Shown piece by piece: positions 1 to 56,638 of a stretch of DNA of 64,000 bases; positions within the stretch are counted from its first letter, which is position 1; each line of letters starts with the position of its first letter. The position numbers were made by a program, and so were the translations under genes. The stretch is from Escherichia phage vB_EcoM_G4507: sequence record NC_054919.1. One strand, 5' to 3'. The notes beneath the pieces are model-generated. The model worked only from the letters and a program-made list of their open reading frames with translations, had not been told where the DNA came from and made no database searches.

Positions 1-400
1 TCACATATTGCCACTGAGTACGAGGAATAAGAGCAAAAGCATCCATCTCTGGAATCATAACGCCATCTTTATTTTCAAAATAAGACTCGCAATGGCAATT
101 TCTGAACATCTCATGCTCTACTGGAATCGTATAATAAAATAACTGTAAGTCTTTATTACTAGAATATTTAAATACACCTAGGTCTTCTAGAAGGTCTGGA
201 TTATAATTGCTAAAACCGGTCTCTTCTAAGCATTCTCTTTTTGCAGCTTCCAGTGCATTCAAATCAGAACTTTCTACACGGCCCTTTGGAATATCCCAAC
301 GATGTGCCATCATTCCAGGCTTACGAGAACCAGTAACCCGACCCATAAATAAATCTTTATCTTCTGTCATAAAGATAATACCAGCTGATAGTGTTTTCAT
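1..400 (-). CDS. nudE: Nudix hydrolase (NudE-like), partial; C-terminus runs off the window start
   Basis: Minus-strand ATG at 398-400, frame open to the window edge (133 codons); translation MKTLSAGIIFMTEDKD...AAKRECLEETGF carries a Nudix-box-like REx2EExGU motif. Absent from the ORF track because there is no in-window stop. Confidence 0.7.
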   Translation of the reverse strand, partial: MKTLSAGIIFMTEDKDLFMGRVTGSRKPGMMAHRWDIPKGRVESSDLNALEAAKRECLEETGFSNYNPDLLEDLGVFKYSSNKDLQLFYYTIPVEHEMFRNCHCESYFENKDGVMIPEMDAFALIPRTQWQYV

Positions 401-885
401 TTTAATTTCCTGCATTCAGTGATAAAGTTATTTAAATTTTGAGTATATTTCTTTTCATCAAAAATCTTTTGTTGTCTGCGTAAACGCCATGGCATTTCAA
501 TGAACACGCACCACATTCCTGATAATATTGCTGCTGTCAAAATATTAACAAGCATAATTAAAAGAATCCAATCTCCTGTTCTGCCTATTGGACTTTCACC
601 AAAGAAGCAAAATACAAATGATGTCACAGGAAAACTAATGATATACCACAGAATCATAATCTTATTTGTAAACCAATCAGCGTTCGTTAGCTTAGCGCGA
701 CCATTATGAATACACACGAATTTATCATCTGTTATAATAGATGGCTTAGCTGCTTGATATCCCATTCTAAACTCCCTAATCAACAAATTTTTCATATCTT
801 CGGAACAACCATTCCAGTCAACTCTATTAACTGAAATGCCATCATCCCCATCATCTAAATCATACCAGCGAGTTTTTAAAATCAT
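397..885 (-). CDS. small hydrophobic protein, unknown function (e-region accessory ORF)
   Basis: Track ORF 162 aa; ATG at 883-885 with AGGA RBS; start overlaps the stop of the upstream ORF (ATGA); hydrophobic stretches suggest a membrane protein. Confidence 0.55.
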   Translation of the reverse strand: MILKTRWYDLDDGDDGISVNRVDWNGCSEDMKNLLIREFRMGYQAAKPSIITDDKFVCIHNGRAKLTNADWFTNKIMILWYIISFPVTSFVFCFFGESPIGRTGDWILLIMLVNILTAAILSGMWCVFIEMPWRLRRQQKIFDEKKYTQNLNNFITECRKLK

Positions 886-1244
886 TTAATTTTCCTGCAA
901 TCACTCACAAACTCTTCCATTGATTCTTTTTCAATATAAGACATGTAGTTGTTATATTCCTTTAATTGTATTTTGTAATCCTTTTTTCTTTGCCAATTTA
1001 TTTTAAAATTATCATAATGAAAATATAACATGGTACCAAAGAATGAAAATAATGAAATAATTTTAGTATAGTGAAGTTCACTCCAAACTTCTATTATATT
1101 TACTGTGCCGTCAATGTTTAAAATAATACAGTCAATTAACAATCCAAAAAGACTACCCGCAAGAGCTGCAGCCAACGCCACAGCAAAAATTAAAAATGAC
1201 TCAGGAAGAGAATATTTGACTTTATTTAGTTTTGGCTTTTGCAT
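882..1244 (-). CDS. small hydrophobic protein, unknown function (e-region accessory ORF)
   Basis: Track ORF 120 aa; ATG start; long hydrophobic segment (FLIFAVALAAALAGSLFGLLI); overlaps neighbouring ORFs at both ends. Confidence 0.55.
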   Translation of the reverse strand: MQKPKLNKVKYSLPESFLIFAVALAAALAGSLFGLLIDCIILNIDGTVNIIEVWSELHYTKIISLFSFFGTMLYFHYDNFKINWQRKKDYKIQLKEYNNYMSYIEKESMEEFVSDCRKIK

Positions 1245-1618
1245 CGTGATTCCTTAACAAATTTCATAATTTCATCAAATTCATGTGCAGCAAGTTTAAG
1301 CTGATGTTCCTTTTTAATCTTTTTACACTGGGCTTTCCAATCACGTACACGTTTACGATAGTGTCTTCCTTGATACCAGTATCCCACCCAATTTACAGGT
1401 ACTAATAAAAATGGAACTATCATTGGAAGAATTAGTGTTGACGCAAATATTACATTAGATTCAATATCAGTCATAACATCTATAACTATTCCAACCCCCA
1501 GTAGAATTACAAATGATACAGCTATTACAGGACCTATTAATACATCAGTAGAAATTAGCTGGCGCTTTAATTCATACTTCAACGGTTTACTTGGAAGATA
1601 CATTGATGGCTTTGACAT
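1226..1618 (-). CDS. small hydrophobic protein, unknown function (e-region accessory ORF)
   Basis: Track ORF 130 aa; ATG at 1616-1618; predicted transmembrane stretches; overlaps upstream ORF by 32 nt. Confidence 0.55.
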   Translation of the reverse strand: MSKPSMYLPSKPLKYELKRQLISTDVLIGPVIAVSFVILLGVGIVIDVMTDIESNVIFASTLILPMIVPFLLVPVNWVGYWYQGRHYRKRVRDWKAQCKKIKKEHQLKLAAHEFDEIMKFVKESRCKSQN

Positions 1619-2195
1619 ATTCTCTACATTCCTTCACAAATTTTTCTAATAATAAATCGCTTTCAAAATTGGGATTTTCCACGAATTTATCAAAAAGATC
1701 ATCAACAATAGTTAAGATATTCTTTTTACTAAGAATACGCTTATTTTCATGCTTCGTTTCAGAATCAACTATAAGAGTAAAGAAATATTTCTTGCCCTGA
1801 AATTTTACAGTAGTATCAATATAGAATAAATTTGACTTTTGTAAATTACGTTTAAACCATGCATCACTTAAACTATAAACGCCAAGATAATCATAATCGT
1901 CGTTTAAATAACAGACCGTCCATTCAGGAGAAACAAAATCAGTAAATTCAACGTCAAAATCGCATGTTAATGAATGAATTGATTCAATACTGTTAATAAG
2001 TATTCCAGGACGTATTAAAGACTTTTTACCTCTAGAAAATCTTCCAGAAAGATTTTCATCAGTTTCATATGAAGAACCCCAATAATAATTACGTCCTTCT
2101 GCCATACGTTTAAGAGCATTTAATAATTGGTCTGGAACATCAACTCGTCTTTGGAACTCTTCAAACATTGAATTGAAATCACTTTGCATTTTCAT
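1587..2195 (-). CDS. hypothetical protein (e-region accessory ORF)
   Basis: Track ORF 202 aa; ATG at 2193-2195; same strand and tight packing with flanking ORFs. Confidence 0.55.
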   Translation of the reverse strand: MKMQSDFNSMFEEFQRRVDVPDQLLNALKRMAEGRNYYWGSSYETDENLSGRFSRGKKSLIRPGILINSIESIHSLTCDFDVEFTDFVSPEWTVCYLNDDYDYLGVYSLSDAWFKRNLQKSNLFYIDTTVKFQGKKYFFTLIVDSETKHENKRILSKKNILTIVDDLFDKFVENPNFESDLLLEKFVKECREYVKAINVSSK

Positions 2196-2236
2196 TCCTA
2201 CTTACTCCAAGTAATAGGGGCCGAAGCCCCTTATCA

Positions 2237-2830
2237 TTATTTCAGAGAATTAATGTATTCCTGAACATCGGCAGAGGTAGTTTCAACCCCAGAAATATTG
2301 CCATTAAAGGTTTCAACTCGGGCAAGAGTATCTTCAATATCAACCTTAGTCAGTGCTGCAATTTCAACTACATCATCAGCAGTACTAATTCCAAGTGCAT
2401 TCGCAGCACGAGTTTCACGGATATATTCCAATTTAACTGCAAGTTCTTGACGAGCATCATCTAACTCAACTACTTTCTTGGCGATTTCAATTCGCATTTC
2501 AGCATAACCATCAGCTTTAGTAGTCAACTGCTCAGCTGTTCGACGATATAGTAAACCGAGTTTAGCATGCATTGTTACATCTTGACCTTCAGAAAGGAGC
2601 TTGCGAATTTCGCGCTCTTTTGATTCGGCCTGCTTATTCTTTTCGACAATAAGTTCACGAATACGCTTTTCTTCGTTAATAGATTTAATGGAAGCAGTTT
2701 TTAGGTCTTTAATCTTATCAAGTAGTTTTGCTGCTGCAGCAGTATACTGTTCTTCAACAGATAGATTTTTAGCCATAGCAGAACCAAGTTTAGTGCGAAT
2801 AAACTCAACAATTTTCTTCAGTGTGTTCAT
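2237..2830 (-). CDS. coiled-coil protein, unknown function (e-region accessory ORF)
   Basis: Track ORF 197 aa; ATG at 2828-2830 preceded by AAGGAA RBS; K/E/R/L-rich sequence; early promoter immediately upstream. Confidence 0.6.
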
Positions 2831-2871
2831 AGTATTTCCTTAGGTTGATTAAAATTAAAATCCACAGAAAA

Positions 2872-2900
2872 ATTATATCATGCTATTTAAGAGATGTAAA
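2872..2900 (-). promoter_or_regulatory. sigma70-type early promoter upstream of ORF 2237..2830
   Basis: Minus strand TTTACA (plus 2895-2900) - 17 nt - TATAAT (plus 2872-2877); lies in the 3' end of the upstream ORF. Confidence 0.55.
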
Positions 2901-3391
2901 CTATTTTTAATTTTACAAATTCGTTCAGCTTCTTCAACAGCGGCAGTGATAATGCTTTTAGCTATAGGAGTACTAATACTAGTAGCTTTTACACTTAACA
3001 CGATTTCTTTATCTTTACCAGGCCAACCCCACGATTTTTCACCATGAGTGCCTTTAATTACAGCAGACACCTCAAGTGAGCATCCATTATCACATGTTTT
3101 TACATTAACAACCCAAGTGTCACTTTTCTCAACCGGTTTATCCCAGTAAATATTAAGAATACGTGGGACATCAAATTTAGCAGGGCAAATCTTAACAGTA
3201 AGACCTTCGCTTTCTAGCCAATTAATAAGAGGGCGTTCATACATGCGGCGATGTGGGCTTTGAACTCGACAAGCTTTGTACCCATTGCTTGCGGCTTCAC
3301 TAAGCTCTTCTAATACCTGCTTTTGCATTATTGATAAGATACCATCAAAAGATTTTTCGGAAGTTTCATTCAGTTCGGTATAAAGAGACAT
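2873..3391 (-). CDS. hypothetical protein (e-region accessory ORF)
   Basis: Track ORF 2873..3406 begins at a TTG; first ATG (MSLYTELNE) at 3389-3391 with GAGGA RBS 8 nt upstream; early promoter upstream. Confidence 0.55.
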   Translation of the reverse strand: MSLYTELNETSEKSFDGILSIMQKQVLEELSEAASNGYKACRVQSPHRRMYERPLINWLESEGLTVKICPAKFDVPRILNIYWDKPVEKSDTWVVNVKTCDNGCSLEVSAVIKGTHGEKSWGWPGKDKEIVLSVKATSISTPIAKSIITAAVEEAERICKIKNSLHLLNSMI

Positions 3392-3409
3392 AACAGTTTT
3401 CCTCAAATT

Positions 3410-3446
3410 ATAGGCTCATAATATCTCAATCATGAGCCTATGTAAA
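3410..3446 (-). promoter_or_regulatory. early promoter with flanking 10-bp inverted repeat, upstream of ORF 2873..3391
   Basis: Minus strand GTTTACA (3441-3446) - 17 nt - TATTAT (3418-3423); inverted repeat ATAGGCTCAT / ATGAGCCTAT at 3410-3419 and 3432-3441. Confidence 0.6.
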
Positions 3447-3447
3447 C

Positions 3448-3711
3448 TTATTTCATATTATTGAAATATTCTTCTGCAATTTCGTCGTTATCATGATAAA
3501 CTTTAGAAGACAGTTTAACATAACCTTCAGCAGTGAACATGTTAATCACAACCTTTACAGTATACCACTGACCATCTTCATTACCCATTACTGCGTAAGT
3601 TTCAAACATCGGATGATCAGGACCGATAACTTTAATATCATTCACTGTACGACCAAAATCTTCTGAAACACATTTCATAAAGAAGTTGAACAGTTCGCCG
3701 TAATTATCCAT
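3448..3711 (-). CDS. hypothetical protein (e-region accessory ORF)
   Basis: Track ORF 3448..3723 begins at TTG; first ATG (MDNYGELF) at 3709-3711 with GGAG RBS; early promoter upstream. Confidence 0.5.
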   Translation of the reverse strand: MDNYGELFNFFMKCVSEDFGRTVNDIKVIGPDHPMFETYAVMGNEDGQWYTVKVVINMFTAEGYVKLSSKVYHDNDEIAEEYFNNMK

Positions 3712-3754
3712 TTCATTCTCCAAGTTGTTTTCTGTATCAGTAGTTGATAGTTGT

Positions 3755-3783
3755 ATAGTACCATAGAAGAACAGGGATGTAAA
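3755..3783 (-). promoter_or_regulatory. early promoter upstream of ORF 3448..3711
   Basis: Minus strand TTTACA (3778-3783) - 17 nt - TACTAT (3755-3760), A/T-rich upstream region. Confidence 0.6.
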
Positions 3784-3912
3784 CAGTTTTGTGAAAAATT
3801 TTTTAAAAAGTTTTGGGGAATTCTAGGGCAAGGAGGGGAAATTAAAGGATAGGATAATATATTATAAAGGGTAGAAACTAAATGATGCCTAGAGAGGCCT
3901 GGAAAGGCCTAG

Positions 3913-3945
3913 ATACCAAAAAGCCCCAACCTTTTGGTCGGGACT
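3913..3945 (-). terminator. intrinsic terminator after the internal protein gene
   Basis: Minus strand CCCGACC-AAAA-GGTTGGG hairpin followed by GCTTTTTGG. Confidence 0.6.
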
Positions 3946-3952
3946 AAGAATG

Positions 3953-4426
3953 TTATTTGATTTGTTTAGCAGACCAAATGCGGTCTTTAATAATTTTTTG
4001 GATGTCTTCAACATACTCGAGAGAATGAGCATGTGGGTTATCTTTAAAGCTATGAGCACGAGCTAGCTTTTGGCCTTCAGTTTTGATTACTAAAAGCTCT
4101 TTAAGGATAGCTTCATATTTGGAGATAATTCCTTTAACGATATTTTTTTCTTGTGCGACTTTAGGATCTGCTTTAGGAGCAGGTTTACCCGAAGCCTTTG
4201 CAAAAGCAGCGCCAGTAGCAACTAAACTTTTCCAGGCCATACTAACTGCATTTCCCGTAAATCCTTCCGCTTTCATGTCGCGTGCGAACTGGAATCGTGA
4301 TTCATCAGAAGCATCTTTGTAAGAATATTTACCCGCTGCAATGGCTGCTTTTGCGACAGCTTGAATTTCGGTGCTAGATGCTTCATTTAACACCGCTTCA
4401 TTTAAAAATTGAGTATATGATTTCAT
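3953..4426 (-). CDS. internal head protein (IPII/IPIII family) with N-terminal capsid-targeting sequence
   Basis: Read from internal ATG 4424-4426 (AGGA RBS) of track ORF 3953..4648; N-terminus MKSYTQFLNEA resembles the T4 internal-protein targeting sequence MKTYQEF..E-A with LxE motifs; the longer track ORF would run through a hairpin and tRNA-like RNA. Confidence 0.65.
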   Translation of the reverse strand: MKSYTQFLNEAVLNEASSTEIQAVAKAAIAAGKYSYKDASDESRFQFARDMKAEGFTGNAVSMAWKSLVATGAAFAKASGKPAPKADPKVAQEKNIVKGIISKYEAILKELLVIKTEGQKLARAHSFKDNPHAHSLEYVEDIQKIIKDRIWSAKQIK

Positions 4427-4464
4427 CTTATTTCCTGTTTTAATTTGTAGATTTAATATACTAA

Positions 4465-4472
4465 TATTTATA
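4465..4472 (-). promoter_or_regulatory. T4-type late promoter (TATAAATA) upstream of the internal protein gene
   Basis: Minus-strand TATAAATA ~40 nt upstream of ATG 4426. Confidence 0.5.
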
Positions 4473-4502
4473 CCAAAAAGCCCCAACCTTTCAGTCGGGG
4501 CT
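4473..4502 (-). terminator. intrinsic terminator at the 3' end of the structured RNA region
   Basis: Minus strand CCCCGAC-TGAAAG-GTTGGGG hairpin followed by CTTTTTGG; near-duplicate of the 3913-3945 element. Confidence 0.55.
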
Positions 4503-4808
4503 AAGCCTTGCGGCAACCTTGTCGGGGTTCCACCTGCTAAGGCAAGTGTTTGTACGAAACGCCGGGATTCGAACCCGGTTATTAAGTAGTTGACGCTACT
4601 CAATATTTTAAAAGGCCATATCTCGACCATATCCGAACGTTCCGTCAAAAACGCTACTCGGTTTACGGCAAAGATATTTCCTCGAATCGATAATTCGGTG
4701 CGCCGTTTCTGCTGTGATAGTAAAGAGCCAGAACACAGTAAAACTGTGGGAGGAAACTATACTCCAGGGAACATCAGTCCGACGACTTACCGGTAGCGAC
4801 CCGGTTTC
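4503..4808 (-). ncRNA. candidate structured small stable RNA(s) with a tRNA-like T-arm, between ORF 4809..5159 and the internal protein gene
   Basis: No convincing ORF; minus strand carries GGTTCGAATCC T-loop (plus 4561-4579) flanked by a possible acceptor pairing CGGAACG/CGTTTCG but no canonical D/anticodon arms, several short hairpins, and ends at a hairpin plus U-tract (4473-4502). Placement next to the tRNA array recalls the small stable RNAs of T4 (recollection only). Confidence 0.35.
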
Positions 4809-5159
4809 TTAGTATTCTTTTAAAGCATCAACCTGTTCACGACGTTTACGCCATAAATCAATTACTTCATACGCAGATTCAGCATTTCGAATTGGACGGC
4901 ATTTATATAAAGACTTGTGATTTTGATATTGTGTAGATAACGGAATTTTATCTAAAAGGTCTTTACGTTCAAAATATTCGTAACCATCTAAACCAAATGA
5001 ACGATTTTTGAGAAATTGCCAATGACCAAATTCGTTTTCGACATAAACATAATCTGCATGCTGATAAAGCAAATTAATTACACGTTCAGAAATAACAGTA
5101 TCATTATGATTAAAATAGAATGTTAAATCATGAACTACTAAATAAACATTACCTTTCAT
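4809..5159 (-). CDS. hypothetical protein, 116 aa, immediately downstream of tRNA-Arg
   Basis: Track ORF; ATG at 5157-5159 with GAGGA RBS at 5164-5168, 18 nt after the tRNA-Arg 3' end; no recognisable motifs. Confidence 0.5.
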   Translation of the reverse strand: MKGNVYLVVHDLTFYFNHNDTVISERVINLLYQHADYVYVENEFGHWQFLKNRSFGLDGYEYFERKDLLDKIPLSTQYQNHKSLYKCRPIRNAESAYEVIDLWRKRREQVDALKEY

Positions 5160-5177
5160 ATTTTCCTCACTTATAAT

Positions 5178-5253
5178 TGGTCGAGGCAGTAGGGATCGAA
5201 CCTACGACCCAGGACTTAGAAGGTCCTTGCTCTTCCTTCTGAGCTATGCCCCG
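5178..5253 (-). tRNA. tRNA-Arg (anticodon TCT)
   Basis: Hand-folded cloverleaf on minus strand: acceptor CGGGGCA/TGCCTCG, anticodon stem AGGAC/GTCCT, loop CTTCTAA, T-loop GGTTCGATCC, encoded CCA. Confidence 0.8.
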
Positions 5254-5257
5254 TAAT

Positions 5258-5333
5258 TGGGGTGACCGATGGGAGTCGAACCCATGACTACGAGAATCAC
5301 AATCTCGAGTTCTACCAACTGAACTACGGCCAC
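5258..5333 (-). tRNA. tRNA-His (anticodon GTG)
   Basis: Minus strand 76 nt: acceptor GTGGCCG/CGGTCAC, D-stem GTTC/GAAC, anticodon stem CGAGA/TCTCG, loop TTGTGAT, T-arm ATGGG-TTCGACT-CCCAT, encoded CCA. Confidence 0.8.
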
Positions 5334-5447
5334 ATTAATACCTACTCCAACAATCATGATGTCTTCACACGAAATTAAGAGAAGAGTGATCAGTTCAACC
5401 CCTATAATCGCGTCAAGTAGATATTAATGTGACAGTTGTCACAAATT

Positions 5448-5522
5448 TGGCGGACGTGATAGGATTCGAACCTATAACCAATCGCTTAACAGGCGATCGC
5501 TCTGCCATTGAGCTACACATCC
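5448..5522 (-). tRNA. tRNA-Asn (anticodon GTT)
   Basis: Minus strand 75 nt: acceptor GGATGTG/CACGTCC, anticodon stem ATCGC/GCGAT, loop CTGTTAA, T-loop GGTTCGAATCC, encoded CCA. Confidence 0.8.
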
Positions 5523-5526
5523 AAAT

Positions 5527-5613
5527 TGGTGGGGAGTGATGGAGTCGAACCACCCGAGTCGCAATGACAATGAATTTACAGTCCACATCGCTACCTCTAC
5601 GGGATAACTCCCC
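5527..5613 (-). tRNA. type II tRNA with long variable arm, probably tRNA-Tyr (anticodon GTA)
   Basis: Minus strand 87 nt: acceptor GGGGAGT/ACTCCCC, anticodon loop CTGTAAA on a stem with two G-U pairs, variable-arm hairpin GTC-ATTGC-GAC, T-arm GGTGG-TTCGACT-CCATC, encoded CCA; D-arm fold is non-canonical, so isotype is tentative. Confidence 0.55.
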
Positions 5614-5619
5614 TTAATT

Positions 5620-5694
5620 TGGTGGCCCTGGGTGGAATTGAACCACCATCTGGCGATTATGAGTCGCTTGCTTGAACCTTCCAGCTACAGGGCC
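5620..5694 (-). tRNA. tRNA with anticodon CAT (elongator Met, or Ile if C34 is lysidine-modified)
   Basis: Minus strand 75 nt: acceptor GGCCCTG/CAGGGCC, anticodon loop CTCATAA, T-arm GGTGG-TTCAATT-CCACC, encoded CCA. Confidence 0.7.
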
Positions 5695-5695
5695 T

Positions 5696-5771
5696 TGGTG
5701 CTGATTGACGGAATCGAACCGCCGACCTTCTCATTACAAGTGAGTTGCTCTACCTACTGAGCTAAATCAGC
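5696..5771 (-). tRNA. tRNA-Thr (anticodon TGT)
   Basis: Minus strand 76 nt: acceptor GCTGATT/AATCAGC, D-stem GCTC/GAGC, anticodon loop CTTGTAA, T-loop GGTTCGATTCC, encoded CCA. Confidence 0.8.
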
Positions 5772-5776
5772 AAAAC

Positions 5777-5866
5777 TGGCGGAGGCGATAGGATTTGAAC
5801 CTATGAGTCGCCGGAGCGACTGCCGGTTTTCAAGACCGGTGCATTAAACCACTCTGCCACGCCTCC
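5777..5866 (-). tRNA. tRNA-Ser (anticodon TGA), type II
   Basis: Minus strand 90 nt: acceptor GGAGGCG/CGCCTCC, anticodon stem CCGGT/ACCGG, loop CTTGAAA, long variable arm, T-loop GGTTCAAATCC, encoded CCA. Confidence 0.8.
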
Positions 5867-5868
5867 AG

Positions 5869-5942
5869 TCTCCATACAAGGATTTGAACCTTGGACCTCC
5901 TGATCCCAAATCAGGCGCTCTACCAAACTGAGCTACACGGAG
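5869..5942 (-). tRNA. tRNA-Pro (anticodon TGG), CCA not encoded
   Basis: Minus strand 74 nt: acceptor CTCCGTG/TATGGAG (two G-U), anticodon stem CCTGA/TCAGG, loop TTTGGGA, T-loop GGTTCAAATCC; 3' end followed by CTGG, not CCA. Confidence 0.75.
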
Positions 5943-5952
5943 TAAATTAAAT

Positions 5953-6026
<74 letters not shown>

Positions 6027-6031
6027 AAATT

Positions 6032-6118
6032 TGGTGCGAGAAGTGAGACTCGAACCCACAAGGAAATAATTCCGCAGCATTTTAAGTGCTGTGCCTTTAC
6101 CAATTTGACCATTCTCGC
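6032..6118 (-). tRNA. tRNA-Leu (anticodon TAA), type II
   Basis: Minus strand 87 nt: acceptor GCGAGAA/TTCTCGC, anticodon stem CAGCA/TGCTG, loop CTTAAAA, long variable arm, T-arm GTGGG-TTCGAGT-CTCAC, encoded CCA. Confidence 0.8.
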
Positions 6119-6119
6119 G

Positions 6120-6192
6120 CTGGGAATAAAGGACTCGAACCTTTGCATCCTGGAATCAAAATCCAGTGCCTTACCAACTTGGCTAATTCCCA
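6120..6192 (-). tRNA. tRNA-Gln (anticodon TTG), CCA not encoded
   Basis: Minus strand 73 nt: acceptor TGGGAAT/ATTCCCA, anticodon stem CTGGA/TCCAG, loop TTTTGAT, T-arm AAAGG-TTCGAGT-CCTTT; only 1 nt separates it from tRNA-Leu. Confidence 0.75.
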
Positions 6193-6289
6193 ATTATTAA
6201 CAAAGGCTCTTTAGCAAGAACCCTTGATGATAGAGGGTATTAATCAGTGCGGTATGAGTTAATAATAACAAATAATTCTTAAAGCATAT

Positions 6290-6577
6290 TTACCATTTAT
6301 GATAATACATATTTACGATGCATTCAAGGCCCAAAGGATTCCTGAAAATATCATATTCAAGAGGACCTTTTTCTGTTTCAATAAAGAAATCAAAATTTAC
6401 TGTATTAAATTTACGGTCTTCCTTCACTAATTTAACTTGGGAAGATGAACGGTCAACATAAACCTTTTCAACTTCAAAACACGTTAAAACGCCATAATCA
6501 TCAATCAAGGCTTTAGCCGCGTCTTGATCATATTTATATCCATTTTCAATGGACGATACTTTTGCATAAAGAATCAT
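6290..6577 (-). CDS. hypothetical protein (accessory ORF between tRNA array and ipI)
   Basis: Track ORF 6290..6583 begins at GTG; first ATG (MILYAKVSS) at 6575-6577 with GGAG RBS; directly follows stop of upstream ORF (TGA-TA-ATG). Confidence 0.45.
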   Translation of the reverse strand: MILYAKVSSIENGYKYDQDAAKALIDDYGVLTCFEVEKVYVDRSSSQVKLVKEDRKFNTVNFDFFIETEKGPLEYDIFRNPLGLECIVNMYYHKW

Positions 6578-6579
6578 TA

Positions 6580-6960
6580 TCACACTCCGTAGTCTATCTT
6601 GACCAATCTACCTTTGTAGTAGCCAAAGTTCTTTGGAAAGGCATCATACTCAAAGAAATCACGGTCAAGCGTTCTGCATTCATCACCATCAACATCATTA
6701 TAGAGCTTTTGCAAATCAGATTTAAAAAGCTCCTTATCCTCAACTGGCTCTGCTTTGTGCATCACAACCATGAGACCAAATCTGTTTGAGTATGCTATTG
6801 GGCATAGGTATTTGTTATCATACCCCTTCCACTGACCTTCTGTAAGATTGCTGAGCATACCCTGCACGAAGTGTTTCCATGTCTTGGGGATAGGGAACTT
6901 AATAGCATACTTATGTGTTAGTAGTACCCATCTGGTTCCACCCGATTTAATTAATTTCAT
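6580..6960 (-). CDS. hypothetical protein (accessory ORF)
   Basis: Track ORF 126 aa; ATG at 6958-6960; no motif recognised. Confidence 0.5.
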   Translation of the reverse strand: MKLIKSGGTRWVLLTHKYAIKFPIPKTWKHFVQGMLSNLTEGQWKGYDNKYLCPIAYSNRFGLMVVMHKAEPVEDKELFKSDLQKLYNDVDGDECRTLDRDFFEYDAFPKNFGYYKGRLVKIDYGV

Positions 6961-6984
6961 AGTCTCAGCTACCTCAATATTAAT

Positions 6985-7032
6985 TTAAGCAATATCATTC
7001 CTGTAAGGTAGTACTTTAGCATAAAGAATCAT
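6985..7032 (-). pseudogene. 15-codon remnant ORF duplicating the 5' end of the 6290..6577 gene
   Basis: Minus strand ATGATTCTTTATGCTAAAGTA.. (MILYAKVLPYRNDIA*) begins 2 nt after the stop of ORF 7035..7445; first 7 codons and the TGA-NN-ATG junction match the start of ORF 6290..6577. Confidence 0.5.
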
Positions 7033-7034
7033 TG

Positions 7035-7445
7035 TCAGCCTCTATCAACGATAGCATGAGTATGGGCATTTACGATTTGCCACCAGTCGAAACGATTGAA
7101 ACCATAATCTGGTTTATTTTCATTTTCTTTAATGATATCACGCAGCTTATCTTCTGTTTCAGCATACGCAATTAAATCATCATATCCACCACAAGGGTAA
7201 TAATTATCACCTGCGAATAAAAGAAAATTTACCTTAGATGGATTTACATAATAATGGTCTTTAGGATATTTAGTTCCTCTCCAATCAGTTACTTCAACAT
7301 AACGGTAAGAAAATCCATTTTTACTTTCAATCCAACTCCACGCTTCAAAAGGAGTATTAAAAACTTTATCAGGTATTAAATTACCTTCAAAATGAGAAGG
7401 ATTTGCATAATCCCCAGCATAAACATAATATTCGTTAATACTCAT
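7035..7445 (-). CDS. hypothetical protein (accessory ORF)
   Basis: Track ORF 136 aa; ATG at 7443-7445 immediately after stop of upstream ORF, AAGGTGA RBS. Confidence 0.5.
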   Translation of the reverse strand: MSINEYYVYAGDYANPSHFEGNLIPDKVFNTPFEAWSWIESKNGFSYRYVEVTDWRGTKYPKDHYYVNPSKVNFLLFAGDNYYPCGGYDDLIAYAETEDKLRDIIKENENKPDYGFNRFDWWQIVNAHTHAIVDRG

Positions 7446-7631
7446 TTATTCACCTTTAGAAATTTTATCCATAACGATAGCAATTAAACCAATTAAAAAT
7501 GCTACTACAAGTGAAAACGCATTTTCTGCTGTAGTTAATAATCCGCATATAAATCCAACAAACATTGAAAAACTAAAAGCAGAAGCAGAAATTGCAATAG
7601 CAACATTTCGAATTAATTCACAGCGTTTCAT
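7446..7631 (-). CDS. small hydrophobic protein (accessory ORF)
   Basis: Track ORF 61 aa; ATG at 7629-7631 with GAGGAG RBS; mostly hydrophobic; own early promoter upstream. Confidence 0.5.
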   Translation of the reverse strand: MKRCELIRNVAIAISASAFSFSMFVGFICGLLTTAENAFSLVVAFLIGLIAIVMDKISKGE

Positions 7632-7651
7632 TTTATTCTCCTCAGTAGTTG

Positions 7652-7688
7652 ATAGGGTAATAGTATCACAACTAAAACCCTATGTAAA
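7652..7688 (-). promoter_or_regulatory. early promoter with flanking inverted repeat, upstream of ORF 7446..7631
   Basis: Minus strand CACAAAGTTGTTTACA (-35 at 7683-7688) - 17 nt - TACTAT (7660-7665); inverted repeat ATAGGGT/ACCCTAT at 7677-7683 and 7652-7658. Confidence 0.6.
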
Positions 7689-7707
7689 CAACTTTGTGAA
7701 AAATTTA

Positions 7708-7992
7708 TTACAAAAGATTTTTAGCAATAATTTTAAGCTGAGCTACTGAAATATGCTTGGCTTTAAACAAAGCAGTTTCTTCAGCAGGGGAGATAATGAT
7801 TGTAGCACCATCTTTCTTAGCGGACCATCCATCACCCAGGTAAACAGTACCTTTAACTTCTTCGCCATCAACCAGGCTAATCATCGGTTTACCTTCACGT
7901 CCTTTGTTTGCTTTAATAACTTCAGAAGTAAGGGTCGCTTCAGTCAAAGTAGAAGCGTTAGTGGTTGAAGTGAATTCTTGATAAGTTTTCAT
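7708..7992 (-). CDS. ipI: internal head protein I (packaged anti-restriction protein family)
   Basis: Track ORF 94 aa; N-terminus MKTYQEFTSTT.. matches the internal-protein capsid-targeting sequence; size matches the ~95-aa T4 IPI precursor; own early promoter upstream. Confidence 0.75.
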   Translation of the reverse strand: MKTYQEFTSTTNASTLTEATLTSEVIKANKGREGKPMISLVDGEEVKGTVYLGDGWSAKKDGATIIISPAEETALFKAKHISVAQLKIIAKNLL

Positions 7993-8013
7993 TTTATTTT
8001 CCTAATTAATTTT

Positions 8014-8051
8014 GATGAGGTAATAGTATCACTACCTCATCAGCATGTAAA
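8014..8051 (-). promoter_or_regulatory. early promoter with flanking 9-bp inverted repeat, upstream of ipI
   Basis: Minus strand CACAAAGTTGTTTACA (-35 at 8046-8051) - 17 nt - TACTAT (8023-8028); inverted repeat GATGAGGTA/TACCTCATC at 8033-8041 and 8014-8022. Confidence 0.6.
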
Positions 8052-8064
8052 CAACTTTGTGAAA

Positions 8065-8761
<697 letters not shown>

Positions 8762-8762
<1 letters not shown>

Positions 8763-9487
8763 TATAGTACCTTTAGTGTATTTTTAATTTTAGAAAAAAG
8801 TTCTTCAAGAGAACCATCGTTTGTAATTACTAAATCGCCATCACGAATTGGCAATCCAGCTTCTGTAATATGTGTATCATTGGATTTTTGACCAGGACGA
8901 ACTACATGAATTACTGTAGCACCCATCGCCCTAGCCGCATCCATTTCATGATCTTGACGGGTATCAGGAACGATATAATAATCATAACCTGAGTTAAATT
9001 TATCAAGATAATCTAAAGCAAATAATTTTACCCAGTACATGCGGTCGAAGTTATTAACAATCAAATCCGTACCTAGGGCTTGCATCAGACGACGGACTGA
9101 CCATTGATCTTCAATATTATTTATAACGTCAATAATCTTGTTAAATGCTACGGAATTAACTAATTCTTGTCCTTCGTCATCAAAAACAAACACACCCTTA
9201 ATTGGGCTTTTACCATTAAGATAGCAAAATGCTTGTTCCATAATCGTGATTACTTCTAATTTAGTCAGATTTAAATTAGTCTCACGATCATAGTCAATTC
9301 CTTCAAACTCTTTACGAGTTAAGCAAGGATAGCCAGTGTTTGCTGCAAATACTCCCCATGCATAAGCCAATGCATCCTTAATAGGACCAGCAAGTTGGTA
9401 TTTAACTGCAGAATAATTGCTCATGATAAAATCAGCAGTAGTATCTTTTCCACTACGCTTTACACCGCTTAAAAAGATTAGTTTCAT
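8762..9487 (-). CDS. 1: deoxynucleoside monophosphate kinase (gene 1)
   Basis: Start set at internal ATG 9485-9487 (GAGGAG RBS) of track ORF; MKLIFLSGVKRSGKDT P-loop; 241 aa as T4 gp1. Confidence 0.85.
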
Positions 9488-9536
9488 GTGTTTCTCCTCA
9501 AATTTAATTAAGATTATAACACACAAAACTGAAGCA

Positions 9537-10067
9537 TTAAACTTCTGCTATAATTTTTCCATCTTTTTCTACTTGAAAATAGGTGTAAGGAATCGTTGCA
9601 GTACATACTAAAGCCGGGTCTGAATCTTCCGTATAGCTAAATTCTACTTCAGATAGGTCAGAAACCCAAGGCTTATAAAAATTTATTGACATCACGATTT
9701 CAGTTTTGCTATTATCTAAGATGTAAAGCGTAATGTACTCAGGACCTGTTTTTTGGGCAGTATTTTCACCTGTAAGATAGTTGCTAGTTCCTAGCATCCA
9801 TTCATACATTCCTATCCATGACTTAAGTTCTTCATCAACTATAAATCTCACAATGAGTGGATCATACTCAAATGTAACACCTGGACGTTGTGCTCGGCCC
9901 AGTCCAAACGGCCCAGTCACGGTATCAGTAACAGGTATTCTAATTCCTGGAATAGGAACTGACTGAGCATTTAAAGTAAAAGCAGATGTAGTATTACTAT
10001 GTGGTATTGATACTACAAAGTTAGTTGTATTTGCTTGGTTAAAAATTTGTTGCAGAGCTTGCGACAT
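9537..10067 (-). CDS. 3: tail tube terminator / sheath stabiliser gp3
   Basis: Start set at ATG 10065-10067 (GAGGA RBS); MSQALQQIFNQ.. and 176 aa as T4 gp3. Confidence 0.8.
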   Translation of the reverse strand: MSQALQQIFNQANTTNFVVSIPHSNTTSAFTLNAQSVPIPGIRIPVTDTVTGPFGLGRAQRPGVTFEYDPLIVRFIVDEELKSWIGMYEWMLGTSNYLTGENTAQKTGPEYITLYILDNSKTEIVMSINFYKPWVSDLSEVEFSYTEDSDPALVCTATIPYTYFQVEKDGKIIAEV

Positions 10068-10173
10068 ATATTCCTCATAATGCTTTATAACTGTTAGTGG
10101 TATAATGGGTCTAAGTCCCTTCCATTCAATTCCATTTAGAACAAACAACAGAAAAGAATGGAAGATAATAGAA

Positions 10174-10998
10174 TTAGATATTTGACCAGACTTTGTTTGC
10201 AGAGAAACGTTTTCCTTTTGAAACGAACTGCTGAAGTGGCATCAACACAACGTTCGCCCAGTCTTTCGGGGCGATTTCAACAAGGCTACCCATAATATTA
10301 CCGGGTATATATGCCTTAATCATTTGGTCTGCACCCCTAAATCCTTTCACTTGACTCCAATCAATTTTTAATTTCGTTTTATTAGTAATAGTAGGTGTAT
10401 TTGAATATTGCTTTAAAAGCTCTTCTAGAAATTGCTGACGAGCTTTAGGTGGAATATAGTGCAAGTTTAATCCGTACATTAAATTGTGCTTACCTAAACC
10501 AAGGTAAATTATCAAAGGAAATTTATCCCAGTAAGGAAGAGTTTCCTTGTGTTTAGCATCATAAGCAAAAGCATATATTCGTCCCGGCTGCGGGCGAACA
10601 ACTTTATGTCCTTTTACTTGCTTAATAGTTTCAGCAAACCATTTTCTGGTTTTATTATTAATTGCTGCGCCTTCATTACGAATTTTATCACGCAATGTTT
10701 GTCTGAATGAATTTATCATAAGCAGTTGTCTTTCTTGCTTATTGAGCTTATTCATTGGTTTTGATTCAAGCTTTTGAATCTTTTCAGCTGTTTTAATTCC
10801 TGAAGCATATTTTGACATTGCTGAAGTAAACGTGGAGTATTTGATTCCTCTTTCTTCAGCAAATTGTTTTCCTGTCATTCCTTTTGCTTTGGCCTTTTTA
10901 TATTCAAGACCTATTTGAATCCATTTCTTTTCGTTTAATGATTGCTTAACCTTTGGAACTTGGGGAGTGCTTTCATTAATTATTTGAAAAATAGCCAT
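10174..10998 (-). CDS. 2: DNA end protector protein gp2
   Basis: Track ORF 274 aa, same length and position as T4 gp2; start overlaps gp4 stop. Confidence 0.8.
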
Positions 10999-11450
10999 TA
11001 TGCCCCCTTAAAGCCAAGAGCTCGTAATCCATCTTCTGTTAGAATTCTAAATTTTATTCCACGCTTTTCAGCTAAAGATTGCGCTGCTTTCCATTTGTCA
11101 GTGTTCACAGACCAGGTATAAATTTCATTCATAAATCTTTTCTTCGCTGCGGTTGTTAGATGTGCTGGTTTAACTGGTGGTTGTGTTTCTTTTTTAGGTT
11201 TTATTTCAATAAAAAATTCTTGTCCAGAAGAATCTTTCATCCAAATATCCATGAAGTATCTACGTTTTTTCCCTTCTGCATTACAAAAATAAGGAATTAC
11301 TGCTGTTTCACTACCCCATGCAATAATTTCTGGATTTTTATCTAACCATTCAAAAAAGAATTTTTCCCAATTTGATCTATACGTAATTTTTTTAGGGTCA
11401 CCTCTATATTTTGATATATTTTTAGGAACCCATTTTCCAGAATATGCCAT
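10998..11450 (-). CDS. 4: head completion protein gp4
   Basis: Track ORF 150 aa, length and position as T4 gp4; late promoter TATAAATA upstream. Confidence 0.8.
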
Positions 11451-11461
11451 TGGATTCTCCT

Positions 11462-11469
11462 TATAAATA
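11462..11469 (+). promoter_or_regulatory. late promoter TATAAATA upstream of gene 53
   Basis: Exact TATAAATA 29 nt upstream of ATG 11498. Confidence 0.6.
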
Positions 11470-11476
11470 GATAATA

Positions 11477-11484
11477 TATTTATA
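11477..11484 (-). promoter_or_regulatory. late promoter TATAAATA upstream of gene 4 (divergent from the gene 53 promoter)
   Basis: Minus-strand TATAAATA ~27 nt upstream of gene 4 start 11450. Confidence 0.55.
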
Positions 11485-11497
11485 AACAGGAGGGCCC

Positions 11498-12088
11498 ATG
11501 CTCTTTACATTTTTTGATCCGATTGAATATGCGGCCAAAACGGTGAATAAAAACGCGCCGACTATTCCTATGACAGATATTTTTAGAAACTATAAAGACT
11601 ATTTTAAACGCGCTCTTGCGGGATACCGCTTACGTACTTATTATATTAAAGGTTCACCACGCCCGGAAGAATTAGCAAATACTATATATGGAAATCCACA
11701 GTTGTATTGGGTTTTATTGATGTGTAATGATAATTATGACCCGTATTATGGATGGATTACTTCGCAAGAAGCTGCTTATCAGGCATCTATACAAAAATAC
11801 AAAAACGTAGGTGGAGACCAAATAGTATATCATGTAAATGAGAACGGTGAAAAATTTTATAATTTAGTATCATACGATGATAATCCATATGTTTGGTATG
11901 ACAAAGGTGATAAAGCTAGAAAATATCCTCAATATGAAGGAGCACTTGCTGCTGTTAATACGTATGAAGCTGCTGTTCTTGAAAATGAAAAACTTCGTCA
12001 AATAAAAATAATAGCAAAATCAGACATCAATTCATTTATGAACGACCTTATACGTATAATGGAGAAATCTTATGGAAATGATAAGTAA
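11498..12088 (+). CDS. 53: baseplate wedge protein gp53
   Basis: Track ORF 196 aa as T4 gp53; late promoter TATAAATA at 11462-11469. Confidence 0.85.
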   Translation: MLFTFFDPIEYAAKTVNKNAPTIPMTDIFRNYKDYFKRALAGYRLRTYYIKGSPRPEELANTIYGNPQLYWVLLMCNDNYDPYYGWITSQEAAYQASIQKYKNVGGDQIVYHVNENGEKFYNLVSYDDNPYVWYDKGDKARKYPQYEGALAAVNTYEAAVLENEKLRQIKIIAKSDINSFMNDLIRIMEKSYGNDK

Positions 12089-40841: not shown

Positions 40842-40856
40842 TCTTTGACGATTTAA

Positions 40857-40883
40857 GGGACCTTCGGGTCCCTTTAGTTGTTT
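40857..40883 (+). terminator. intrinsic terminator after major capsid gene 23
   Basis: GGGACC-TTCG-GGTCCC hairpin followed by TTTAGTTGTTTTT. Confidence 0.7.
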
Positions 40884-40924: not shown

Positions 40925-42208
40925 ATGGCTAAAATCAACGAACTTCTGCGCGAATCAACCACAACGAATAGCAACTCAATCGGTCGCCCAAATCTCGTTG
41001 CTTTGACTCGCGCTACCACTAAATTAATATATTCTGACATTGTAGCAACGCAAAGAACTAATCAACCTGTTGCTGCTTTTTATGGTATCAAATACCTTAA
41101 CCCGGATAACGAATTTACATTTAAAACTGGTGCTACTTACGCCGGCGAAGCTGGATATGTAGACCGAGAACAAATCACAGAATTAACAGAAGAGTCTAAA
41201 TTAACTCTCAATAAGGGCGATTTATTCAAATATAATAATATCGTTTATAAAGTATTAGAAGATACACCATTTGCTGATATTGAAGAAAGCGATTTAGAAT
41301 TAGCTCTTCAGATTGCAATTGTTCTTTTAAAGGTTCGTCTATTTTCTGACGCAGCGTCAACAAGCAAATTTGAAAGCTCTGATAGTGAAATTGCGGATGC
41401 TAGATTCCAGATTAATAAATGGCAAACCGCAGTTAAATCTCGTAAACTTAAAACTGGTATCACAGTTGAATTAGCACAAGATTTAGAAGCAAATGGATTC
41501 GATGCTCCTAATTTCTTGGAAGATTTGCTTGCAACCGAAATGGCAGATGAAATCAATAAAGATATTCTGCAGTCTTTGATTACAGTGTCAAAACGCTATA
41601 AAGTTACAGGAATTACTGATACTGGATTCATCGATTTGAGTTATGCATCTGCACCTGAAGCTGGTCGTTCATTATACCGAATGGTATGTGAAATGGTTTC
41701 ACATATCCAGAAAGAATCAACTTATACAGCAACGTTCTGTGTTGCTTCAGCTCGTGCCGCTGCGATTCTTGCTGCATCAGGTTGGTTAAAACATAAACCA
41801 GAAGATGACAAATATCTTTCACAAAATGCCTACGGGTTCTTAGCTAATGGTTTACCGCTTTATTGCGATACCAACAGCCCATTAGATTATGTAATCGTTG
41901 GCGTAGTAGAAAATATCGGTGAAAAAGAAATTGTTGGATCAATTTTCTATGCTCCGTATACAGAAGGTCTTGACTTAGATGACCCTGAACATGTAGGTGC
42001 ATTTAAAGTTGTAGTTGATCCAGAAAGTTTGCAGCCATCTATCGGTTTATTAGTTAGATATGCTTTATCTGCAAATCCTTACACTGTAGCAAAAGATGAA
42101 AAAGAAGCAAGAGTAATTGATGGTGGAGACATGGATAAAATGGCGGGTCGTTCAGATTTGTCTGTTTTATTAGGTGTTAAGCTACCAAAAATTATCATTG
42201 ATGAATAA
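40925..42208 (+). CDS. 24: capsid vertex protein gp24
   Basis: Track ORF 427 aa as T4 gp24; late promoter TATAAATA at 40890-40897. Confidence 0.9.
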   Translation: MAKINELLRESTTTNSNSIGRPNLVALTRATTKLIYSDIVATQRTNQPVAAFYGIKYLNPDNEFTFKTGATYAGEAGYVDREQITELTEESKLTLNKGDLFKYNNIVYKVLEDTPFADIEESDLELALQIAIVLLKVRLFSDAASTSKFESSDSEIADARFQINKWQTAVKSRKLKTGITVELAQDLEANGFDAPNFLEDLLATEMADEINKDILQSLITVSKRYKVTGITDTGFIDLSYASAPEAGRSLYRMVCEMVSHIQKESTYTATFCVASARAAAILAASGWLKHKPEDDKYLSQNAYGFLANGLPLYCDTNSPLDYVIVGVVENIGEKEIVGSIFYAPYTEGLDLDDPEHVGAFKVVVDPESLQPSIGLLVRYALSANPYTVAKDEKEARVIDGGDMDKMAGRSDLSVLLGVKLPKIIIDE

Positions 42209-42214
42209 AACAAA

Positions 42215-42235
42215 GGGACCTTTCGGTCCCTTTTT
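42215..42235. terminator. bidirectional terminator between gene 24 (+) and rnlB (-)
   Basis: GGGACC-TTTC-GGTCCC hairpin flanked by A-tract on one side and TTTTTATTT on the other. Confidence 0.7.
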
Positions 42236-42237
42236 AT

Positions 42238-56634: not shown

Positions 56635-56638
56635 CAAT

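Follow-up and report, generated by a model that had tools for sequence, protein, structure and literature searches.

Two early promoters flanking an internal-protein gene of Escherichia phage vB_EcoM_G4507 have their -10 elements enclosed by inverted repeats, which raises the questions of what these repeats do and whether the promoter units contribute to gene shuffling. Elements of ~70 bp that combine an early promoter with an inverted repeat are said to lie on both sides of internal-protein genes in T-even phages, and to have been proposed for shuffling. We have examined these units in a 64,000-nucleotide stretch of NC_054919.1 (the window).

Genes and early promoters of the ipI locus

The window phage is a Tequatrovirus with ~95% identity to T4 in the ipI region; ECP52 is identical to the window over 7400-8600 (100%) and 99.2% identical over 3900-4520. 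All of the features described here are on the minus strand. The conserved gene 57B (8065..8520) lies upstream of the variable internal-protein locus, and is followed by ipI (7708..7992), which codes for a 94-aa internal virion protein precursor (phrog_4363, E = 3.6e-48) that begins MKTYQEF and carries the conserved internal-protein leader, and by a trna.4 homolog (7446..7631) encoding a predicted 61-aa membrane protein. The ipI gene is flanked on both sides by intergenic cassettes, C1 upstream (7993..8064, from the 57B stop codon to the ipI start codon) and C2 downstream (7632..7707, from the ipI stop codon to the trna.4 start codon). Each occupies the whole of a ~73-nt intergenic gap, and contains a full T4-type early promoter together with the Shine-Dalgarno sequence of the next gene (AGGA at 8003..8000 for ipI; GAGGAG at 7643..7638 for trna.4).

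The two units were originally predicted to share an upstream block, a 17-nt spacer and TACTAT, and this is borne out by reading of the minus strand and by a hexamer scan; common to both are TTTCACAAAGTTGTTTACAT, the 17-nt spacer, TGn and TACTAT. In C1 the upstream block and -35 region, CACAAAGTTGTTTACA, is an exact match at 8061..8046 with GTTTAC at 8052..8047, and the hexamer scan reports TTTACA, a 17-nt spacer and TACTAT preceded by TG. The extended -10 is at 8023..8031 (TG at 8031..8030, n, and TACTAT at 8028..8023). C2 has the same upstream block at 7698..7683, with GTTTAC at 7689..7684 and a TACTAT at 7665..7660 that the hexamer scan also finds preceded by TGn. The UP/-35/TGn/-10 architecture of T4 early promoters has been described (PMC2988021; the consensus is also in PMC4122927), and both units have its components: GTTTAC(A), the 17-nt spacer, TGA and TACTAT, with an A/T-rich UP-like region (A+T makes up 84% of the upstream 25 nt in the T4 copies). 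The TTTCACAAAnnnGTTTAC block is found again at many T4 early promoters. Both promoters are on the coding strand and precede the start codon of their gene (ipI or trna.4) by 60-65 nt, and these sequence features point to two strong early promoters in the window, probably of the host sigma-70 type. A literature search for T4 5'-end and 3'-end maps and for 5'-end data on this phage found none that was usable.

In the T4 record X03016 of GenBank (Broida and Abelson 1985, J Mol Biol 185:545), the homologous sites are already marked as two putative early promoters, PE2 and PE1, with a -35, a -10 and an overlapping 'pot. stem-loop structure' at each. C1 corresponds to PE2 with its overlapping stem-loop, and C2 to PE1 with the stem-loop labelled 'pot. 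IpI terminator'; the locus and genes are the same and the sequences are essentially so, with the ipI stem identical to that of T4 and the trna.4 spacer differing by one base. The window cassettes do not differ in kind from PE2 and PE1, and their source is another Tequatrovirus. C1 and C2 are long-known T-even early-promoter and hairpin cassettes, and the observation is a real but not a new one (1985, 1994).

Inverted repeats around the -10 elements

The ipI repeat has a 5' arm TGATGAGGTA (8042..8033) within the promoter spacer and a 3' arm TACCTCATCA (8022..8013) covering approximately positions -6 to +4 relative to the predicted start, with ten perfect pairs and the loop GTGATACTAT. The trna.4 repeat has seven pairs and an 18-nt loop, with arms ATAGGGT (7683..7677) and ACCCTAT (7658..7652), the latter containing the predicted start (A at 7653). 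The 7-9-bp repeats originally reported around the -10 are both present, and the trna.4 repeat is 7 bp as described, although that of ipI is 10 bp rather than 9, spanning 8013-8042 instead of 8014-8041. Each unit is an early promoter overlapped by an inverted repeat, as is the element of Repoila 1994. In both cassettes the -10 falls in the hairpin loop, and the arms occupy the spacer and the start region, which are the sole loosely constrained positions of the cassette.

We asked how often such repeats arise by chance in two ways. At 20,000 random window positions with identical geometry, the probability of a repeat of at least 7 bp is 0.056 and of at least 10 bp is 0.0016. In 5000 shuffles with the -35, TGn and -10 held fixed, the ipI repeat is matched in 8 and the trna.4 repeat in 146. 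The 10-bp ipI repeat is clearly non-random (P ~0.002), and the 7-bp trna.4 repeat taken alone is marginal (P 0.03-0.06). RNA folds of the whole intergenic regions give z = -4.2 for ipI and z = -3.2 for trna.4, and DNA folds too are better than those of shuffles. With G-U counted, the ipI hairpin has 13 pairs in RNA, the additional three (two of them G-U) being made from TGn and -10 bases; the trna.4 RNA fold has an extra inner UAGU/ACUA helix.

Further copies are present to the left in the window, in a 53-nt direct-repeat family of four members (3407-3459, 3744-3796, 7649-7701 and 8012-8064). The third cassette (3407..3459) has GTTTAC (-35 at 3447), TATTAT and a 10-bp repeat around the -10, ATAGGCTCAT/ATGAGCCTAT (3441..3432 and 3419..3410), that is reached by 3 of 5000 shuffles; its fold has z = -3.1. 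The fourth member, CACAAAACTGTTTACA (3744..3796, -35 at 3784), has no clear stem in the window, and its IMG/VR homologs have one whose 3' arm is over the Shine-Dalgarno sequence. Recurrence at the boundaries of accessory ORFs, also part of the original prediction, is thus modestly true in the window, with three clear copies and one degenerate. The 16-nt upstream block by itself is not significant at three mismatches in a window search, and Rfam over 1-12000 reports only tRNAs. The window also has a background of imperfect inverted repeats (10 nt or longer), with a density of about one per kb.

There are five strong window promoters of the GTTTAC-N17-TAnnAT form; three have a repeat spanning the -10, and at two this is a 10-bp repeat (P ~0.002 each). 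Across T4, repeats of at least 7 bp are present at 10 of 33 GTTTAC-N17-TAnnAT sites against an expectation of 5.6% (p = 8.5e-6), and fold z-scores are below -2 at 14 of 34 promoters and in 3 of 60 random segments. Each of the three T4 internal-protein genes is immediately preceded by a repeat-bearing promoter (65799, 66498 and 73939), and ipI (73572) and ipII (65413) are also immediately followed by one. The marginal trna.4 value and the background of imperfect repeats would suit an origin of the repeats as chance features of A/T-rich intergenic DNA. This is scarcely credible given the 10-bp repeats at two of the five window promoters, the T4-wide enrichment, the fold z-scores, and the retention of repeats with changed arms in relatives (see below).

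Possible roles of the hairpins

We consider it probable that C1 and C2 are two copies of a T-even early-promoter/inverted-repeat cassette that flanks internal-protein genes and acts as follows. Host sigma-70 RNA polymerase would start ~7 nt past TACTAT, within the 3' arm; the usual sigma-70 spacing predicts starts at A 8016 for ipI and A 7653 for trna.4. The mRNA made from each promoter itself would then have a short unstructured leader, and leaders from the predicted starts fold at 0 kcal/mol (8016..7990 for ipI). With the start predicted to fall inside this arm, the complete hairpin would form only in read-through RNA from upstream promoters, whether early, middle or late, where it would sit just past the upstream cistron. 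We infer that its most likely role there is to attenuate transcription and/or to block 3' exonucleases, which would insulate and stabilise the neighbouring message.

A dyad-symmetric -10 region is typical of operators, and 5' hairpins stabilise some bacterial mRNAs, such that the repeat could be the operator of a sequence-specific regulator or a 5' hairpin stabilising the promoter's own transcript, both of which had been raised with the original prediction. Neither idea survives well, and together they seem very improbable. Arm sequences differ between C1, C2 and ten other T4 promoters, and are unrelated between different T4 promoters; this change of arm sequence from cassette to cassette, with pairing retained, makes an operator unlikely. 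As for a 5' hairpin, the predicted start within the 3' arm would leave the 5' arm out of the promoter's own RNA, and the predicted leaders are unstructured.

An alternative for the read-through RNA is that the hairpins are true transcription terminators of the upstream unit and that the promoter merely restarts transcription. X03016 describes the stem-loop on the trna.4 side as a potential IpI terminator, a PeSL stem-loop of phage RB49 lowered lacZ expression to a degree similar to rrnB T1 (Arbiol 2010, PMC2839356), and the RNA hairpins of both cassettes are predicted to be stable. Neither stem is followed by a U-run, however (what follows is AAAAUUAAUU in one and CAACUACUGA in the other), both are richer in A/T than the RB49 stems (Arbiol 2010), and a terminator scan misses both hairpins yet calls G+C-rich ones followed by T-runs in other parts of this 12-kb segment. 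The lack of a U-tract and of a call in the scan makes efficient termination doubtful, and we regard this explanation as unlikely.

The position of the promoter inside the hairpin is shared with T4 e, soc, 49 and I-TevI, where the gene's own transcripts are without the 5' arm and read-through RNA forms the hairpin; at C1 and C2 the -10 is likewise in the predicted loop and the predicted start in the 3' arm. The stem could therefore act mainly by the translational control known for those four genes, and at T4 early promoters upstream of denV, regB, 30.8, nrdC.8 and ndd.4 the 3' arm lies directly over the Shine-Dalgarno sequence. In the predicted trna.4 read-through fold, GGAGAAU is paired with an upstream U-run. 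The T4 e, soc, 49 and I-TevI promoters are late or middle promoters, however, with a stem that covers the Shine-Dalgarno sequence or the AUG, whereas the ipI ribosome-binding site is outside the modelled stem, which stops ~10 nt before the Shine-Dalgarno sequence and leaves it and the AUG unpaired in the predicted fold. The trna.4 masking is by weak outer pairs of the predicted structure, the only ones that touch GGAG, and sequestration of the Shine-Dalgarno sequence and start codon is not seen in the predicted read-through folds of these cassettes. IpI is moreover needed late, when it is made only from read-through or late transcripts, and masking would be counter-productive. Translational control as the main role is thus unlikely.

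The favoured attenuator or exonuclease-barrier role can be set in a broader context, which we put forward tentatively: the -10-centred hairpin may be more than a relic of compaction, and constitute a genome-wide RNA device in T4-type phages, present at ~40% of early promoters, that separates read-through from locally initiated RNA. There would be two forms, one ending at the start site that would cap or stabilise the upstream message, and another that would silence the Shine-Dalgarno sequence of the next gene in read-through RNA. The first would be the form found directly before each of the three T4 internal-protein genes, and also after ipI and ipII. If this is correct, late read-through ipI and ipII RNA would be hairpin-bounded and long-lived, and the preferred dyad registers, in which TGn and -10 bases form G-U-closed inner pairs, would be a selected design. 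G-U extensions outnumber A-C extensions by 10 to 5. Stability is greater for the sense than for the antisense RNA in 24 of 28 promoters, a bias shared by control promoters (32 of 44). Neither comparison separates a role in RNA from one in DNA.

Cassettes and gene exchange in relatives

Repoila et al. 1994 (EMBO J 13:4181), as described by Arbiol 2010 and Comeau 2014, found PeSL-like elements at T-even internal-protein loci and linked them to internal-protein gene shuffling. As these two papers present them, the elements resemble C1 and C2 in flanking an internal-protein gene at one of two polymorphic internal-protein loci, and in the window too the cassettes are on both sides of a leader-bearing ORF in a polymorphic locus. 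The T-even elements are considered analogs, not homologs, of the RB49 PeSLs (Arbiol 2010; Comeau 2014). The PeSLs of RB49/phi1, PST/T4 and nt-1/KVP40 (Arbiol 2010; Comeau 2014) are like C1 and C2 compact intergenic units, in which an A/T-rich region is combined with an early promoter, a stem-loop and a Shine-Dalgarno sequence, and are repeated beside variable ORFs in association with indels between close relatives. The RB49 stem is often between the -35 and -10 or overlaps the -10 (Arbiol 2010; Comeau 2014). RB49 PeSLs differ in having near-consensus TTGACA promoters, stems of G-runs and C-runs, and demonstrated terminator activity; C1 and C2 have neither TTGACA nor such stems, their -35 being GTTTAC and their stems (TGATGAGGTA and ATAGGGT) A/T-richer and variable. 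The canonical intrinsic (Rho-independent) terminator, with its G+C-rich hairpin and U-tract, was likewise considered as a class for the two hairpins and rejected.

Among relatives, the interval from 57B to trna.4 contains 24 distinct cassettes, of which 13 have at least seven Watson-Crick pairs around the -10, in two preferred registers. The other 11 have stems at chance level only, and the stem is therefore not obligatory. There is a compensatory example (AGGGCTAT/ATAGCCCT vs AGGGTTAT/ATAACCCT) and a G-U pair in one variant of the ipI stem. In an unbiased alignment of the 24 cassettes, with both dyad registers counted, covariation is greater in the true than in slid registers; the count is not above a shuffle control (118/500 and 87/500), and we claim no statistical covariation.

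The same interval carries from zero to four internal-protein-like genes in 23 IMG/VR relatives. KMB40 and L069 have an additional gene between copies of the direct repeat GTGATACTATTACCCTATCAA, L090 is without ipI and has a trna.4-type cassette directly following 57B, and L023 has a chimeric cassette. In these closely read cases the gene junctions are inside the cassettes. Some neighbouring internal-protein genes in relatives have no intervening cassette. Together with the X03016 annotation and the work of Arbiol 2010 and Comeau 2014, the junctions uphold the proposed likeness of these hairpin-bearing early promoters to PeSL cassettes tied to shuffling, C1 and C2 being copies of an intergenic unit of promoter and stem-loop that recurs and is linked to indels among close relatives. 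The sequences of the relatives support cassette-linked gain, loss and replacement of internal-protein genes as the probable history of the locus.

One way to account for such junctions is that the repeat acts in DNA, as a target structure for a nuclease or recombinase that would give site-specific, integron-like cassette exchange, or as a modulator of promoter melting or shut-off. Arbiol 2010 suggests a possible stem-binding recombination protein and reports PeSL mini-circles, the relatives' junctions are at or beside the stem, and the DNA folds exceed shuffles. With arms of 7-10 bp and loops of 10-18 nt, the repeats are nonetheless poorly suited to cruciform formation, arm sequences are not conserved between cassettes, the ipI stem gains its three further pairs (two G-U) in RNA, and the junctions are explained equally by plain homologous recombination in identical blocks of 20-45 bp. 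A role of the repeat in DNA is decidedly improbable. In the cassette model that we favour, the conserved cassette blocks and the conserved internal-protein leader codons would provide 20-45-bp patches of homology, which appear to serve T4-type recombination in adding, removing and exchanging internal-protein genes in the 57B-trna.4 interval.

The internal proteins enter the host by injection and act against its defences; the target of IPI is the GmrSD restriction system, which it blocks, and T4 infection of E. coli ECOR17 requires IPIII. Since the flanked genes have this role, the cassettes are likely exchange points for T-even host-range retooling. The value for the window is mainly one of annotation, in that two strong early promoters are placed, their repeats are explained and the 57B-trna.4 interval is marked as a swap site, and the role of the hairpin might extend to many T4 early promoters.

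A scan of IMG/VR for AGTTGTTTACA-N17-TACTAT identified 62 loci, most of them chance matches in unrelated contigs; only about 15 of the loci are T4-like.

Promoter cassettes flanking ipI

The minus-strand gene order (gp3, gp1, 57A, 57B, ipI, trna.4, trna.3, then the tRNA cluster) is that of T4, and identity over 7400–8600 is 100% with Escherichia phage ECP52 and ~95% with T4; the product of ipI has a match in phrog_4363, a family of internal virion proteins. The minus-strand sequence is TTTCACAAAGTTGTTTACATGCTGATGAGGTAGTGATACTATTACCTCATCAAAATTAATTAGGAAAATAAAATG in the 57B/ipI gap and TTTCACAAAGTTGTTTACATAGGGTTTTAGTTGTGATACTATTACCCTATCAACTACTGAGGAGAATAAAATG in the ipI/trna.4 gap, and this reading bears out the original prediction that two early promoters here have a common upstream block, a 17-nt spacer and TACTAT. 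Both have TTTACA, the 17-nt spacer, TG and TACTAT, and the 16-nt shared block is present in exact copies at 8061..8046 and 7698..7683 (minus). The inverted repeats predicted around the -10 are also present on this strand, with ten perfect pairs at ipI (8042..8033 with 8022..8013; one more than the nine reported) and seven at trna.4 (7683..7677 with 7658..7652). The motif search proposed at the outset finds only five strong GTTTAC-N17-TAnnAT promoters in the window, all on the minus strand, and the -10 of a third promoter (-35 at 3447) is likewise enclosed by a 10-bp repeat, ATAGGCTCAT/ATGAGCCTAT. A repeat finder also reports a 53-nt family with four cassettes in the window.

Random window positions with the same geometry have a repeat of 7 bp or more in 5.6% of cases and of 10 bp or more in 0.16%; with the promoter elements held constant, shuffled sequences reach the ipI value in 8/5000 and the trna.4 value in 146/5000. 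The ipI repeat is thus clearly non-random and the trna.4 repeat, taken alone, is marginal; most of the doubt is removed by the context of the third promoter's 10-bp repeat and the four-member 53-nt family.

The observation is confirmed, and cassettes of this kind were already known from a model phage. GenBank entry X03016 (T4 tRNA region), attributed here to Broida and Abelson (1985; citation details from PMC2330249), marks putative -35 and -10 elements at the homologous sites and assigns them to early promoters PE2, which precedes ipI, and PE1, which precedes ORF2 (now trna.4). A 'pot. stem-loop structure' overlaps each, with the label 'pot. IpI terminator' on that at PE1. Promoter-early stem-loop (PeSL) cassettes were defined in RB49 and phi1 by Arbiol et al. 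(2010), who demonstrated promoter activity, terminator activity and mini-circle formation. As cited by Arbiol et al., Repoila et al. (1994) described PeSL-like elements at the two variable T-even internal-protein loci; Arbiol et al. regard these as analogs on T4 early promoters, with stems that are weaker and A/T-richer. A later extension of PeSLs, to the PST/T4 pair (Comeau et al., 2014), has promoters of the form TTTACW-N17-TAYWAT. The comparison with module-shuffling cassettes in the original prediction was right.

Repeats at other early promoters and in relatives

Among GTTTAC-N17-19-TAnnAT sites in the T4 early regions, 10/33 have a repeat of 7 bp or longer across the -10 (binomial p = 8.5e-6), and with the extended -10 held fixed 14/34 sites have an RNA-fold z < -2, as against 3/60 random segments. 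The arm sequences are unrelated between promoters, and there are two geometries. In the first, the 3' arm begins no more than ~3 nt from the -10 and finishes near the start site, as upstream of ipI, trna.4, ipII (14 bp), ipIII (8 bp), motB, 30.7 and cd.2. In the second, the 3' arm lies 11–17 nt downstream, over the Shine-Dalgarno sequence, as upstream of denV, regB, 30.8, nrdC.8 and ndd.4 (-35 sites listed at 65413, 62797, 130310, 53943 and 166807 of T4 AF158101). A repeat-bearing promoter is directly upstream of all three T4 internal-protein genes, and directly downstream too for ipI and ipII. We note that the motB promoter has GGGACCA/TGGTCCC arms around its -10, the same as in GGGACC-loop-GGTCCC hairpins that occur more than once among the window's late genes (40848–40881, 42207–42238 and 56628–56667). 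T-runs follow the latter two, and these hairpins are probably the phage's canonical terminators.

With 57B as the anchor, 23 IMG/VR loci encoding a close 57B relative have from zero to four ORFs with an MKT[YF][QK]EF-type leader between 57B and trna.4, and this variation confirms the interval as a hyperplastic internal-protein locus. Among the cassettes with a 17-nt spacer in these intervals, 24 are distinct. Retention of the repeat at homologous promoters, on which the original prediction depended, holds for 13 of them, where seven or more Watson-Crick pairs surround the -10; the rest have fewer. The stems have two preferred dyad registers, one centred in the -10, with inner G-U, U-A and G-U pairs from the TGn and -10 bases and an AUAC loop, and the other, the trna.4 type, in which UAGU/ACUA forms an inner helix. 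Arms vary with pairing kept (TGATGAGGTA, (TA)GATAGGGTA, AGGGCTAT/ATAGCCCT and AGGGTTAT/ATAACCCT), and the ipI stem has one variant with a G-U pair. Covariation is only suggestive, because the formal pair count in an unbiased cassette alignment is not above the shuffle control, and enrichment across unrelated T4 promoters is the stronger argument for selection.

Start site position and hairpin function

Transcription is predicted to start at A 8016 (ipI) and A 7653 (trna.4), the seventh base after TACTAT, such that the ipI 3' arm would span about -6 to +4 and the trna.4 3' arm about -5 to +2. The -10 falls in the loop because most positions of the gap, only ~73 nt long, are set by the promoter, and the arms fit only in the spacer and the start region. 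Given these starts, the promoters' own leaders lack the 5' arm and have a folding energy of 0 kcal/mol, and the 5' stabilising hairpin suggested originally is excluded by this geometry, the start being within the 3' arm. An operator, also suggested, is unlikely since the arms differ among cassettes.

The RNAs with the full intergenic hairpin would be transcripts from upstream. RNA folding gives a 13-pair hairpin for the full 57B/ipI intergenic RNA (z = -4.2) and a composite hairpin for that of ipI/trna.4 (z = -3.2). An efficient terminator is not favoured, as no U-tract follows either hairpin and a terminator scan called neither, calling canonical G+C-rich terminators nearby; the role we favour is hence in read-through RNA, where the hairpin could act as an attenuator or as a 3'-exonuclease barrier insulating neighbouring cistrons. 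Masking of the ribosome-binding site, as for T4 e, soc, 49 and I-TevI, does not account for ipI, whose Shine-Dalgarno sequence is unpaired in the fold. It may operate at T4 promoters of the second geometry, where the ribosome-binding site would be masked in read-through RNA and free in locally initiated RNA, resembling those late-promoter cases yet at early promoters. The function of the hairpin may extend to ~40% of T4 early promoters.

Junctions at the cassettes and other features nearby

Comparison of junctions among relatives, as originally proposed, reveals gain, loss and chimera formation at the cassettes. In KMB40 and a second locus (L069), ipI and trna.4 are separated by an additional internal-protein gene with a direct repeat at its boundaries; the repeat starts GTGATACTATTACCCTATCAA and is 44 nt long in KMB40. 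Locus L090 is without ipI, and in it the conserved -35 block of the first cassette is fused to a trna.4-type spacer, with a different internal-protein gene coming next; L089 also has a different internal-protein gene, behind an ipI-type cassette. At about 3490 in L023 there is a chimera of the 5' half of a trna.4-type spacer and the 3' half of an ipI-type unit, with the stem largely lost, and one L081 cassette (4174–4260) has a tandem duplication of the -10 and 3' arm, TACTATTACCTCATCAAGATACTATTACCTCATCAAAATT. These two scarred cassettes indicate that a phage can do without the stem, at least for a time, and the cassette is missing at some boundaries between internal-protein genes. These junctions are what would be expected of homologous recombination between 20–45-bp identical blocks, for which the repeated promoter blocks would be passive substrates; neither a special recombinase nor a structure-specific DNA recombination signal would be needed, the latter being a less likely alternative.

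 A 126-aa ORF (phrog_4301, unknown function; 6580–6960, minus) is an extra gene that separates the homologs of trna.3 and trna.2. Flanking it is a 31-nt direct repeat (6557–6587 and 7012–7042; 87% identical) that duplicates the trna.3-stop/trna.2-start junction and left a truncated 'MILYAKV...' start at ~7032. This looks like an insertion with junction duplication in which no promoter cassette is involved. The tRNA array (4552–6192) has twelve tRNA genes by ARAGORN, ten of them confirmed by Rfam (T4 has eight), and no segB homing-endonuclease gene among them. A 157-aa ORF, MKSYTQFLNEA... (phrog_2280, unknown function; 3953–4426, minus), has an internal-protein-like capsid-targeting leader at its N-terminus and is in the tRNA region, outside both of the classical loci for internal proteins. 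Upstream of it is a late-promoter match, TATAAATA, and the ORF lies between two G+C-rich terminator hairpins with T-runs (flanks 3913–3948 and 4470–4505; 92% identical). The 621-nt segment 3900–4520 is 99.2% identical to ECP52 and is at least 80% covered in 391 phage records, the ORF being annotated as hypothetical in 10/10 of the full-coverage records listed.
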